Below are positions 8,759 to 58,413 of a stretch of 64,000 nt of DNA, in pieces. The translations under genes and the position numbers were made by a program. Position 1 is the first letter of the stretch, and each line of letters begins with the position of its first letter. The stretch lies in the NCBI RefSeq assembly GCF_050920415.1, contig NZ_CP169309.1. The stretch is one strand, 5' to 3'. The DNA comes from Escherichia coli (lineage in GTDB: Bacteria; Pseudomonadota; Gammaproteobacteria; Enterobacterales; Enterobacteriaceae). The notes under the pieces were generated by a model that was given only the letters and a program-made list of their open reading frames with translations, did no database searches and was not told the DNA's origin.

Positions 8759-8762
8759 GTTA

Positions 8763-8795
8763 ATATGCCTGATGGTGTTGCACCATCAGGCATAT
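8763..8795. terminator. Hairpin between convergent tpx and tyrR (putative bidirectional terminator)
   Basis: Perfect 15-bp inverted repeat atatgcctgatggtg / caccatcaggcatat with a 3-nt loop. Confidence 0.55.
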
Positions 8796-8801
8796 TCGCG
8801 C

Positions 8802-39134: not shown

Positions 39135-39173
39135 GCGCGGCGCATTATCCTGCCTGAGGGTAATGCGCCGCGC
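39135..39173. terminator. GC-rich palindrome after puuP (terminator or REP-like)
   Basis: gcgcggcgcattatcc / gggtaatgcgccgcgc inverted repeat with a 7-nt loop; no clear T-tract. Confidence 0.35.
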
Positions 39174-43299: not shown

Positions 43300-44291
43300 T
43301 GCCATTACTCGATATTCGTAACCTGACCATTGAATTTAAAACCGGTGATGAGTGGGTTAAAGCCGTCGACCGCGTAAGTATGACCTTAACCGAAGGTGAA
43401 ATCCGCGGTCTTGTTGGCGAATCCGGTTCCGGCAAAAGTTTGATTGCAAAAGCAATTTGTGGGGTGAATAAAGATAACTGGCGTGTTACTGCTGACCGTA
43501 TGCGTTTTGATGATATCGATTTGCTGCGTCTCTCCGCACGCGAACGGCGCAAGCTGGTTGGTCACAACGTGTCGATGATTTTCCAGGAACCGCAGTCGTG
43601 TCTTGACCCGTCAGAACGTGTGGGTCGCCAGTTGATGCAAAACATCCCAGCCTGGACCTATAAAGGCCGTTGGTGGCAGCGTTTTGGTTGGCGCAAACGT
43701 CGCGCTATTGAACTGTTGCACCGCGTGGGGATTAAAGATCACAAAGATGCGATGCGCAGTTTTCCCTATGAGTTGACAGAAGGTGAATGTCAGAAAGTGA
43801 TGATAGCCATTGCACTGGCGAATCAACCGCGTCTGCTGATTGCTGACGAACCGACCAACTCAATGGAGCCAACAACCCAGGCGCAAATTTTTCGCCTGTT
43901 GACGCGTCTCAACCAGAACAGCAATACCACTATTTTGCTTATCAGCCATGACTTACAAATGCTTAGCCAATGGGCGGATAAAATTAACGTGCTTTACTGC
44001 GGTCAAACGGTGGAAACCGCGCCAAGTAAGGAGTTGGTGACAATGCCACATCATCCTTATACCCAGGCGCTGATCCGCGCGATACCAGACTTCGGCAGCG
44101 CGATGCCGCATAAAAGTCGCCTCAATACGCTGCCCGGCGCTATCCCACTGCTGGAACAGTTACCGATTGGGTGTCGTCTGGGGCCGCGTTGCCCGTATGC
44201 ACAACGAGAATGCATTGTGACGCCACGTTTGACGGGGGCGAAAAATCATCTCTATGCCTGTCACTTCCCGCTGAACATGGAGAAAGAGTGA
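43299..44291 (+). CDS. sapD: ABC ATPase SapD
   Basis: 330 aa; Walker A GESGSGKS. Confidence 0.9.
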
Positions 44292-44292
44292 G

Positions 44293-45099
44293 ATGATCGA
44301 AACGCTGCTTGAAGTGCGTAATTTAAGTAAAACGTTCCGTTACCGGACCGGCTGGTTTCGTCGTCAGACCGTAGAAGCGGTAAAACCTTTGAGCTTTACG
44401 CTACGTGAAGGCCAGACACTGGCGATCATTGGCGAGAATGGTTCTGGTAAATCCACGCTGGCGAAAATGCTGGCGGGAATGATAGAACCGACCAGCGGCG
44501 AGTTATTGATTGACGATCATCCGCTGCATTTTGGCGATTATTCCTTCCGTAGTCAGCGTATTCGCATGATTTTTCAGGATCCTTCGACCTCGTTGAATCC
44601 CCGTCAACGTATCTCGCAGATTCTTGATTTTCCACTGCGCTTGAACACCGATCTGGAACCTGAACAGCGTCGGAAACAGATTATTGAAACGATGCGGATG
44701 GTTGGGCTGCTACCGGATCACGTCAGTTACTATCCGCATATGTTGGCACCCGGGCAAAAACAGCGTCTGGGGCTGGCGCGCGCGCTGATATTGCGCCCAA
44801 AAGTCATTATTGCCGATGAAGCCCTCGCCTCACTGGATATGTCGATGCGTTCGCAGTTGATTAATCTGATGCTGGAGTTACAGGAAAAACAGGGCATTTC
44901 GTATATTTATGTTACCCAGCATATTGGGATGATGAAGCACATTAGCGACCAGGTACTGGTGATGCATCAGGGCGAGGTTGTCGAGCGAGGTAGTACTGCG
45001 GATGTGCTCGCCTCTCCGCTGCACGACCTCACTAAACGACTGATTGCCGGTCATTTTGGCGAGGCATTGACGGCGGATGCGTGGCGTAAGGACCGTTAA
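44293..45099 (+). CDS. sapF: ABC ATPase SapF
   Basis: 268 aa; Walker A GENGSGKST. Confidence 0.9.
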   Translation: MIETLLEVRNLSKTFRYRTGWFRRQTVEAVKPLSFTLREGQTLAIIGENGSGKSTLAKMLAGMIEPTSGELLIDDHPLHFGDYSFRSQRIRMIFQDPSTSLNPRQRISQILDFPLRLNTDLEPEQRRKQIIETMRMVGLLPDHVSYYPHMLAPGQKQRLGLARALILRPKVIIADEALASLDMSMRSQLINLMLELQEKQGISYIYVTQHIGMMKHISDQVLVMHQGEVVERGSTADVLASPLHDLTKRLIAGHFGEALTADAWRKDR

Positions 45100-45169
45100 T
45101 TTTCTGAATCAAGCTTGCAGAATATTCACCTCATTCTGACAGGGAAATTCATCCTGTCAGAATGAAGGG

Positions 45170-45532
45170 ATGGATAAAATAAAAGCAAATGCCCGCGATT
45201 TAAGACGCAACCTCACCCCGCAGGAGCGAAAGTTCTGGCGATATCTTCGCAGCCGACGTTTTGCTGATTTCAAATTTCGCCGTCAACATCCGGTGGGGAA
45301 TTACATTCTCGATTTTGCCTGTTGCTCTGCACGTTTAGCGGTAGAGCTTGATGGTGGGCAACATGATTCAGCTATCGCGTATGATACCAGGCGCACGCGC
45401 TGGCTTGAGTCCCAGGGCTGGACCGTGCTGCGTTTCTGGAATAACGAGATCGATCATAATGAAGAGGCGGTTCTGGGGGAGATTCTGCAGGAACTGAGCC
45501 GCCGGTCACCCTCACCCCAACCCTCTCCCTGA
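45170..45532 (+). CDS. ycjD: DUF559-family (endonuclease-like) protein
   Basis: 120-aa ORF; MDKIKANARDLRRNLTPQERKFWRYLRSRRF...; the 3' end runs into a repeat region. Confidence 0.7.
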   Translation: MDKIKANARDLRRNLTPQERKFWRYLRSRRFADFKFRRQHPVGNYILDFACCSARLAVELDGGQHDSAIAYDTRRTRWLESQGWTVLRFWNNEIDHNEEAVLGEILQELSRRSPSPQPSP

Positions 45533-45737
45533 AAGGGCGAGGGGGCTGTATGTGCCTGTTTGTTGCTGCGCAGGCAAATGAACAAGCGGTGCCGGGGATC
45601 ATTCTGCAGGAACTGAGCCGCCTGTTACCCTCTCCCTGAAAGGGCATGGGGGCTGTATGTGCCTGTTTGTTGCTGGGGTGACAACGCGCACAATCGGTCC
45701 CCTCGCCCCTCTGGGGAGAGGGTTAGGGTGAGGGGAA
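45482..45737. repeat. Tandem partial duplication of the ycjD 3' end plus flanking inverted repeats
   Basis: attctgcaggaactgagccgcc occurs at 45482 and 45601; ccctctccctgaaagggc(g/at)ggggctgtatgtgcctgtttgttgctg at 45521 and 45628; ccctcaccccaaccctctccc (45508) is inverted at gggagagggttagggtgaggg (45714). Confidence 0.7.
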
Positions 45738-45888
45738 AAGCGCACACCCGTGCCCACATTCCTGCCAACTATAGCCACTCACACCCAGGTTGATTATAAT
45801 AACCGTTTATCTGTTCGTACTGTTTATTCAAACGACGAATCGCCTGATTTTCAGGCAACAACAAGCATCAACAATAAGGATTAAAGCT

Positions 45889-46677
45889 ATGGGTTTTCTT
45901 TCCGGTAAGCGCATTCTGGTAACCGGTGTTGCCAGCAAACTGTCCATCGCCTACGGTATCGCTCAGGCGATGCACCGCGAAGGAGCTGAACTGGCATTCA
46001 CCTACCAGAACGACAAACTGAAAGGCCGCGTAGAAGAATTTGCCGCTCAATTGGGTTCTGACATCGTTCTGCAGTGCGATGTTGCAGAAGATGCCAGCAT
46101 CGACACCATGTTCGCTGAACTGGGTAAAGTTTGGCCGAAATTTGACGGCTTTGTACATTCCATTGGTTTTGCACCGGGCGATCAGCTGGATGGTGACTAT
46201 GTTAACGCCGTTACTCGTGAAGGCTTCAAAATTGCCCACGACATCAGCTCCTACAGCTTCGTTGCAATGGCAAAAGCTTGCCGCTCCATGCTGAATCCGG
46301 GCTCTGCCCTGCTGACCCTTTCCTACCTTGGCGCTGAGCGCGCTATCCCGAACTACAACGTTATGGGTCTGGCAAAAGCGTCTCTGGAAGCGAACGTGCG
46401 CTATATGGCGAACGCGATGGGTCCGGAAGGTGTGCGTGTTAACGCCATCTCTGCTGGTCCGATCCGTACTCTGGCGGCTTCCGGTATCAAAGACTTCCGC
46501 AAAATGCTGGCTCATTGCGAAGCCGTTACCCCGATTCGCCGTACCGTTACTATTGAAGATGTGGGTAACTCTGCGGCATTCCTGTGCTCCGATCTCTCTG
46601 CCGGTATCTCCGGTGAAGTGGTCCACGTTGACGGCGGTTTCAGCATCGCTGCAATGAACGAACTCGAACTGAAATAA
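45889..46677 (+). CDS. fabI: Enoyl-ACP reductase (NADH)
   Basis: [40 protein letters not shown]...; 262 aa. Confidence 0.95.
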
Positions 46678-52580: not shown

Positions 52581-53330
52581 ATGAATTCCCGACAACAAAC
52601 TATTCTACAGATGGTCATTGACCAGGGTCAGGTTAGCGTAACCGATCTGGCAAAAGCCACTGGAGTTTCTGAAGTTACCATTCGCCAGGATCTCAACACC
52701 CTCGAAAAACTGAGTTACCTCCGCCGTGCACATGGCTTTGCAGTTTCGCTTGATAGTGATGACGTCGAAACCCGTATGATGAGCAACTATACACTGAAGC
52801 GTGAACTCGCCGAGTTTGCCGCGTCACTGGTTCAACCGGGCGAAACTATCTTTATCGAAAATGGCAGCAGCAATGCCCTACTCGCCCGGACTCTGGGCGA
52901 GCAGAAGAAAAACGTCACTATCATCACGGTCAGCAGCTATATTGCACATTTGCTGAAAGACGCGCCTTGTGAAGTCATTTTACTCGGTGGCGTGTACCAG
53001 AAAAAAAGCGAAAGTATGGTTGGCCCTTTGACACGTCATTGCATCCAACAGGTGCATTTCAGCAAGGCATTTATTGGTATTGATGGCTGGCAGCCTGAAA
53101 CTGGGTTTACCGGTCGCGATATGATGCGTACCGATGTGGTCAATGCCGTGCTGGAAAAAGAGTGCGAAGCGATAGTCCTGACTGACAGTTCGAAATTTGG
53201 TGCTGTACATTCATACTCCATCGGCCCCGTTGAGCGATTCAATCGCGTGATTACCGATTCGAAAATACGCGCCAGCGATCTGATGCATCTTGAGCACAGT
53301 AAACTCACCGTTCACGTCGTTGACATTTAA
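52581..53330 (+). CDS. yciT: DeoR-family transcriptional regulator
   Basis: 249 aa; helix-turn-helix [21 protein letters not shown]. Confidence 0.85.
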
Positions 53331-53598
53331 CCATTTCCCTTCTCTACGGATGATTTGCTGTTTTGCAAATCATCCGCTCTAAGATGATTCCTGGTTGATA
53401 ATTAAGACTATTTACCTGTTATTAACACTCTCAAGATATAAAATTATTATCAGCGATATAACAGGAAGTCATTATCACCTGCGTGATATAACCCTGCGCG
53501 CGAGCGGATTTCACGGAATAATTTCACCAGGCTTATTCTTAGCTATTATAGTTATAGAGAGCTTACTTCCGTGAATCATAAATTCAGGAGAGAGTATT

Positions 53599-58375: not shown

Positions 58376-58413
58376 CATTTGCTTGCCGGAAGCAAAATAA
58401 CCGGCAAGCAAAT
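58376..58413. terminator. Hairpin between convergent ribA and acnA
   Basis: catttgcttgccgg / ccggcaagcaaat inverted repeat with an 11-nt loop. Confidence 0.5.

Follow-up and report, generated by a model that had tools for sequence, protein, structure and literature searches.

Several described systems bear on the short palindrome that lies between sapF and ycjD in the stretch of Escherichia coli DNA analyzed here (64,000 nucleotides of contig NZ_CP169309.1, henceforth the window). One is a promoter: on the basis of genomic SELEX with the RpoD holoenzyme in K-12, CTGACA-16-CAGAAT was listed as a "constitutive promoter" of ycjD (Shimada et al. 2014, PMC3946193), and the window has the same hexamers and spacer length at the same sapF-ycjD location. 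The K-12 SELEX peak in this spacer was obtained in vitro, at low resolution and with another allele, the hexamers being assigned by inspection; the paper is silent on the palindrome and its mirror promoter, the ATG at the start site, the sharing of the region with other DUF559 genes and the survival of the hairpin in eef-type strains. A second parallel is offered by the protective 3' stem-loops of Rho-dependent transcripts (Dar and Sorek 2018, NAR, PMC6061677). As in that class, a stable stem-loop stands shortly after a stop codon and lacks a U tract; unlike in that class, the hairpin of the window directly precedes an ORF rather than an untranslated Rho-utilization (rut) region. Intrinsic terminators likewise place a stem-loop after the last gene of an operon, but the stem of the palindrome is unusually long for one (13-20 bp) and AT-rich. 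Leaderless mRNAs are rare in E. coli; those of the species and of its phages and transposons include lambda cI transcribed from PRM and tetR of Tn1721. As would be expected of such a transcript, ycjD has its start codon at the predicted +1 and no Shine-Dalgarno (SD) sequence, a likeness of geometry. Finally, REP/BIME, ERIC and BoxC/PIT elements are also short intergenic palindromes at gene ends. In contrast to these, the palindrome is unrelated in sequence to BoxC, although linked to BoxC copies ~340 and 530 bp downstream, and Rfam 15 returned only chance-level matches to eukaryotic families (E > 2) for positions 44000-46500. Membership in a dispersed repeat family was rejected, the palindrome being single-copy (median 1 place per genome, maximum 2).

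The inverted repeat consists of CATTCTGACAGG (45132-45143) and CCTGTCAGAATG (45153-45164), with GAAATTCAT between the arms. An earlier note on this DNA had described it as a perfect 12-bp repeat with a 9-nt spacer, some 30 bp after the stop of sapF and directly before ycjD. Both gene names are right and the description holds, save that the perfect repeat is in fact 13 bp long (TCATTCTGACAGG and CCTGTCAGAATGA, Table 1) and its arms grow to 18 nt if two mismatches are allowed. The sapF stop codon ends 32 nt before the repeat begins, and the ATG of ycjD lies 5 nt past the perfect repeat, within the extended right arm, which reaches its A. Perfect inverted repeats of at least 12 bp with a 3- to 20-nt spacer are expected 0.12 times per shuffled window and occur at five loci in the real one; the sapF-ycjD palindrome is thus well beyond chance. 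The others, of 12-16 bp and also without T tracts, lie at 8762-8796, 39135-39173, 53347-53376 and 58377-58413. The motif TTCTGACAG occurs exactly only in the two arm copies; with at most one mismatch it is found 24 times in the window against 10.6 expected (0/100 shuffles reach 24), an excess that is probably an effect of codon usage.

Table 1. Features of the sapF-fabI region, in window coordinates
Feature	Coordinates	Strand	Remarks
sapF	44293..45099	+	268-aa ORF, last gene of sapABCDF; so annotated in matching E. coli genomes
Variable sapF-fabI segment	45100..45766	.	ycjD module here; eefRABCD island in other E. coli, with only the relic hairpin before it
IR1	45102..45122	+	Degenerate copy, TTCTGAA-TCAAGC-TTGCAGAA; family form TTCTGAA-N6-TTCCAGAA
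Left arm	45126..45143 (perfect 45131-45143)	+	Carries -35-like CTGACA, 45136-45141
Loop	45144..45152	+	Middle of 16-bp promoter spacer; sequence free, length fixed where the ORF is present
Right arm	45153..45170 (perfect 45153-45165)	+	TG 45155-45156; -10-like CAGAAT 45158-45163
ycjD	45170..45532	+	120-aa ORF, DUF559, Vsr-like endonuclease fold
Inverted BoxC/PIT/TMECO repeat	45509..45545	-	Encodes last codons and stop of ycjD; marks 3' part of module
BoxC/PIT/TMECO repeat	45700..45735	+	Partner copy; identical to TMECO no. 9 (PMC4666352, Table 1)

As RNA, a 61-nt segment with the palindrome folds to -26.5 kcal/mol (z = -5.5 against shuffles), the opposite strand folding as well as the sense strand; the hairpin would form part of any RNA reading through from sapF. 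No T tract follows it (15-nt tail score -1.57; random sequences average -2.06 and T15 scores -7.15), and a terminator scan makes no call at the palindrome in the window or in K-12. The earlier statement that this is no intrinsic terminator therefore stands, the U tract being absent in K-12 and E. albertii too (tail scores -2.43 and -1.56). Some eef-type alleles have a moderately T-rich tail, TTCATTACTTTTG, with a score of -3.55 that falls in the top 2% of random sequences. We considered a vestigial terminator that lost its U tail on the arrival of ycjD and dropped it, since E. albertii and O157 are also without a convincing tail and since the hairpin belongs to the DUF559 module (below).

As DNA, the same letters read as a promoter. 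In the window as in K-12, a scan finds CTGACA-16-CAGAAT with a TGn extension on each strand, 9/12 hexamer positions matching; the palindrome has the features of an extended -10 sigma-70 promoter (16-18 bp spacing, A2 and T6 of the -10, TGn). Because the arms are complementary, the promoter has a mirror image on the minus strand. A promoter by itself leaves unexplained why the -35 and -10 elements are complementary and why their pairing persists without ycjD. Taking these findings together, we propose, with a probability of roughly 45%, that the palindrome is the core sigma-70 promoter of ycjD, probably yielding a leaderless mRNA, and also a tail-less protective stem-loop in read-through sap RNA. 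In the DNA, the left arm would supply the -35-like element and the right arm an extended -10 (TGt-CAGAAT, 45155-45163) across the 16-bp spacer, with transcription predicted to start at the ycjD ATG itself. In the RNA, sapF read-through would fold into a -26 kcal/mol stem-loop without a U tail, which might act as a barrier to 3' exonucleases for the sap mRNA and would bury the ycjD start in the read-through transcript. The RNA structure could be a by-product that acquired a use of its own, or it may always have had one; in strains of the eef type the hairpin role alone would remain. The earlier note had left the choice between a protein-binding palindrome and an RNA structure, which our reading keeps in spirit, with RNA polymerase as the best-supported protein and a classical dimeric operator disfavored.

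The putative start of ycjD deserves a closer look. YcjD matches Pfam PF04480 over its full length (E = 6.6e-47, profile positions 2-108 of 109). Its ATG stands 7 nt after the -10-like hexamer, where the transcription start is expected, and no SD sequence is present at 4-12 nt spacing in the Escherichia alleles (0 kcal/mol); hence, the transcript is most likely leaderless. In other genera the SD pairing is at best weak (-2 to -5.3 kcal/mol, against -11.6 for a consensus SD). Sequestration of an SD as the main function was set aside, as GAAGGG/GAGGTG abuts the ATG at 0-2 nt and offers 0 kcal/mol of usable pairing, and a coding extension 5' of the ATG is excluded by an in-frame stop at 45137-45139 with no start codon after it. 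No ycjD transcription start site has an entry in the supplements of Adams 2021, Yan 2018 or Ettwiller 2016. In K-12 (positions 1331-1333 of locus L001) and in 15 metagenome contigs the ATG is replaced by ATA; all other alleles, including the window haplotype and the B1-type GAGGTGATG, have ATG. The ATA accounts for the K-12 RefSeq annotation, which starts ycjD 3 nt earlier, at a GTG within the hairpin arm, and ycjD may be poorly or not translated in K-12. Further, an antisense terminator-like hairpin with a T run lies within codons ~8-14 of the DUF559 ORF in the window (45210-45193, minus strand), K-12 (L001 1370-1353) and Enterobacter (L179 2545-2528). It may be linked to antisense transcription at the 5' end of ycjD, where mainly antisense signal is reported from public browser data (PMC12817139), a finding that counts against our reading.

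A hairpin follows sapF in all 97 Escherichia loci (37 of the ycjD type and 60 of the eef type; 20 alleles), a set of genome loci and 87 metagenome-contig loci gathered by a scan anchored on the sapF 3' end only and made up mostly of close E. coli relatives, so that the counts overstate the independent events. In alignment, strains of the eef type, which have no ycjD downstream, show this hairpin directly behind sapF as well; E. albertii and two cryptic-clade genomes are of this type. One stem pair covaries, being T-A in 40 loci and C-G in 57 with no mispairs, and eef-type alleles such as L002-L004 differ from the ycjD type by this compensated change, T-A to C-G. Across 16 Escherichia alleles 85.8% of the cells are paired, against 36-47% with the partners slid, and the core eight pairs are invariant. 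The folding energies of the eight alleles tested all lie between -22 and -29 kcal/mol (z -4.5 to -8.1). In E. albertii the arms are kept, and the rest of the spacer has diverged past BLAST detection and is unalignable. The spacing between the hexamers behaves differently from the pairing: it is 9-14 bp in the relics of eef-type E. coli and the cryptic clades and 16 bp in E. albertii, and the -10 has become CAGGAT in eef-type E. coli and one cryptic-clade allele. Hence, without ycjD the pairing is kept and the promoter geometry decays. The eef-type apex is a G-run/C-run of varying length, as in GGCCCCCC, GGGCCCCCC, GGGGAACCCCCC and GGGCCCCCCCC (L002-L004, L089, L090, L120, L127 and others), a variation that looks like slippage.

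Outside Escherichia the hairpin is absent after sapF in 77 loci of other genera, and a sapF-specific element common to Enterobacteriaceae was rejected on this ground. Judged by the first 110 nt beyond sapF in L010-L086, the sapF-fabI junction of Enterobacteriaceae is a hot spot for insertions: in many genera fabI, with its promoter region, follows sapF directly, and others have canonical terminators, unrelated genes or other insertions there, among them, by eye, ERIC-type-like repeats (L082, L083, L085) and REP-type palindromes (L039, L069). The earlier note had let its suggestion turn on conservation in Enterobacteriaceae and on mapped transcript ends. The conservation is indeed strong, but after sapF it is confined to Escherichia and elsewhere it goes with DUF559 homologues; as to the ends, no curated K-12 Term-seq 3' end maps at the palindrome.

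The universal presence of the hairpin after sapF, whatever follows, and the compensated pair are what one would expect if the palindrome were only a stem-loop in the 3' UTR of the sap operon, with a protective role, defining the 3' end after Rho termination or processing, its likeness to a promoter coincidental and ycjD expressed otherwise if at all. The retention of the stem over the whole divergence of E. albertii and E. coli, in loci without ycjD, speaks in the same direction, as does the base composition downstream: over 200 nt on the sapF strand the eef-type loci are C-rich and G-poor (C/G 1.6-2.4 against a background median of 1.07), resembling a rut region, while in the window the 75 nt that follow the hairpin reach only 1.25-1.67. 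Moreover, the class itself is described (PMC6061677), and the window holds an example of such a 3' end: the T-less perfect repeat at 53347-53376, after a 249-aa ORF (52581-53330), coincides with the Term-seq 3' end of yciT, classed as "primary" at MG1655 1,343,547 (-) (Adams et al. 2021). However, the Term-seq and Rho tables of the same study, which list only the ~1000 dominant ends, have nothing in 1,350,208-1,361,395, and the SELEX peak is left unexplained, as are the restriction of a fixed 16-17 bp hexamer spacer to ORF-bearing loci and the homologous region of the same geometry before DUF559 genes at unrelated loci, one of them with a divergent neighbor. Other genera also do without a hairpin after sapF. 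A stem-loop alone is accordingly a serious candidate, though an unlikely one in our estimation, and we prefer to combine it with the promoter.

The allele of the window allows the persistence of the arms to be gauged. Its ycjD module is rare: only 5/5426 complete E. coli genomes have one of at least 99% identity. It is 84.5% identical to that of K-12, the K-12 and E. ruysiae modules being 92% identical and the flanking fabI 98%, which suggests either a haplotype of long standing or acquisition from a lineage of Escherichia not yet sampled. Compared with K-12, the window has identical arms in the perfect core (45131-45165), the differences falling in the spacer or apex, with two at the base of the right arm; by our own calculation, 26 arm positions would remain unchanged at 15.5% haplotype divergence with a chance of ~1%. 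This figure bears on the view that the palindrome has no present function and is an old promoter remnant kept perfect by template-switch (quasipalindrome) mutation and short evolutionary distances. Compensatory changes in palindromes can indeed come from template switching without selection, and the 97 loci are mostly closely related E. coli; the poly-G/poly-C variation at the apex is of the slippage type; ycjD is dispensable, lost in 38% of genomes and beginning with ATA in K-12; and recorded transcript ends include none at the palindrome. Against this, arms identical across such divergent haplotypes, their survival in E. albertii amid unalignable flanks and the keeping of pairing with a different sequence in the Enterobacter group (below) make a functionless remnant quite unlikely.

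YcjD homologues with ~57-70% identity are found in Kluyvera, Klebsiella, Enterobacter, Lelliottia, Pseudenterobacter, Franconibacter, Phytobacter and others, where they occupy two other loci, one between hemW and yggN and one between the gene for an ABC-transporter substrate-binding protein (SBP) and a yfeX-like gene. Despite the differing neighbors, the 80 nt before the ATG align almost without gaps (alignment A3, 12 DUF559 loci); the fixed spacings could thus partly mirror shared ancestry instead of constraint. Invariant or nearly so are CTGAA and TT of IR1, TG of the -35, the ATG and, in the -10 region, C, A and T together with the G that follows the hexamer. Between the hexamers lie 16-17 bp in 12/12 loci, TGn precedes the -10 in nine, and the ATG comes about 6-7 nt after the -10 in 11. 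Over the helix 69.9% of the cells are paired, against 33-45% when slid, and the Escherichia arms TTCTGACAGG/CCTGTCAGAA become TTCTGCCAGC/GCTGGCAGAG in the Enterobacter group with pairing kept. As a homologous 5' region thus occurs at two other loci in at least seven other genera, the comparison indicates that the palindrome travels with the DUF559 gene. At the SBP/yfeX locus the upstream gene is divergent, which implies that the module must bring a promoter of its own. In the loci outside Escherichia, however, the hexamers are weak (CAGAGT is a 3/6 match), and the promoter scan there makes no plus-strand call upstream of the DUF559 ORF. Many of the helix pairs in the DUF559 loci are G-U, on the sense strand only; together with the keeping of pairing by changed arms, this points to the read-through RNA of the upstream gene.

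IR1, the second inverted repeat of this region, is conserved in sequence and spacing in 12/12 DUF559 loci (A3 columns 11-34), with its helix 1 paired in 66.7% of the cells, and is absent from eef-type alleles; it may serve as an insulator or bind a protein. At the hemW loci IR1 shares nucleotides with the stop codon of hemW and has TTTT after it, which gives it the look of a terminator there. With IR1 as a second site, the palindrome could be imagined as an operator on top of the ycjD promoter, to which a dimeric regulator, perhaps YcjD itself, would bind symmetrically. The arms are indeed conserved in sequence, with a core of 8 bp invariant in the 16 Escherichia alleles; the half-sites of IR1 are invariant with N6 fixed in the 12 loci, TTCTGA being common to IR1 and the arms; and the distance between half-sites is constant in the ORF-bearing loci. 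In the relic alleles, however, the spacing of the hexamers drifts over 9-16 nt with the pairing kept, one pair having changed on both sides, a behavior that fits a folded strand better than a dimer reading the duplex. Further, the G-U pairs of the family are symmetric only in sense-strand RNA, the arms are unlike in sequence between the Escherichia and Enterobacter groups, and a comparison by eye with the LexA, CRP, Pho-box and sigma-54 motifs gave no convincing match to the palindrome. We therefore regard an operator as decidedly improbable and retain RNA polymerase as the protein most probably bound.

At its other end the module is marked by BoxC/PIT/TMECO repeats, a family present at a median of 17 places per E. 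coli genome; TMECO no. 9 is the designation of Holder et al. (2015, PMC4666352). A tandem duplication of ~119 bp (45458-45577 and 45577-45684, 83-90% identity) includes the 3' end of ycjD and a BoxC-like segment. DUF559 ORFs at the other loci, in Kluyvera and Enterobacter, also end in a BoxC pair (L174, L177, L179), and the literature searched makes no mention of a link between DUF559 and BoxC. A search of plasmids by tblastn gave no further enterobacterial DUF559 modules. This arrangement raises the possibility of a hairpin that acts in the DNA, marking the 5' end of a portable DUF559 module as a site of recombination or mobility, with no role in expression. The edges of the hairpin are breakpoints, with a 20-nt indel on its 5' side and the divergence of ycjD-type from eef-type sequence right after the 3' arm; the module is found in three unrelated places, at or immediately behind the sapF and hemW stops, and always ends in the BoxC pair; and the encoded protein has a nuclease fold. 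Yet there is neither a target-site duplication nor a second copy of the hairpin at the other end, each genome has the hairpin as a single copy, inheritance inside the genus groups looks vertical at every locus, and no movement is documented, so that we hold this reading to be very unlikely. A more speculative picture, also very unlikely, takes the palindrome (IR2), IR1 and the BoxC pair as the ends of a portable DUF559 cassette that lands at or after host stop codons, bringing an insulator, a palindromic promoter and a leaderless endonuclease gene. BoxC would then be to the nuclease what REP is to RAYT, and the sapF hairpin of eef-type E. coli and E. albertii would be a scar of the cassette.

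The history of the sapF-fabI segment can be reconsidered on the preferred reading of a promoter doubling as a hairpin. Two forms follow sapF in E. coli: ycjD with GC-rich repeats, as in K-12 and the window, and the 7.9-kb efflux island eefRABCD, which lies on the opposite strand and is seen in O157 and B2 strains. Of 5426 E. coli genomes, 3377 have the ycjD module, and in E. ruysiae the gene also lies between sapF and fabI. BLAST comparison of the window with an O157 locus (L005) places the homology breakpoints at 45107/45127-45147 and at 45766, and the 20 nt absent 5' of the eef-type hairpin correspond to IR1. This polymorphism has been published: the island was assigned to phylogroups B2, D, E, F and G, the ycjD form to A, B1 and C, and repeated loss of eef was deduced (PMC12817139). 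Since the hairpin after sapF is homologous to the 5' regions of DUF559 genes, that of the eef-type strains is most simply taken as the relic of a ycjD-type module whose ORF was replaced.

Although the promoter hexamers were already published, the palindromic architecture, the probable leaderless start, the conservation at three loci and the scar beside eefRABCD are not in the papers searched. Taken alone, the palindrome is a small regulatory element before a dispensable gene of unknown function, interesting in evolutionary terms and otherwise fairly ordinary. On our reading it would offer a natural example of one sequence with two roles, serving as a promoter in the DNA and forming a hairpin once transcribed by read-through, for which the loss of the gene in eef-type strains provides a built-in control that separates the two constraints: the spacing decays and the pairing stays. 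Beyond this, a DUF559 nuclease gene is physically and repeatedly linked to BoxC/PIT repeats. The homology of the hairpin to DUF559 regions also changes the polarity of the published evolutionary scenario, suggesting that a ycjD-type module may have stood between sapF and fabI before the efflux island, rather than ycjD having simply replaced a lost eef operon.
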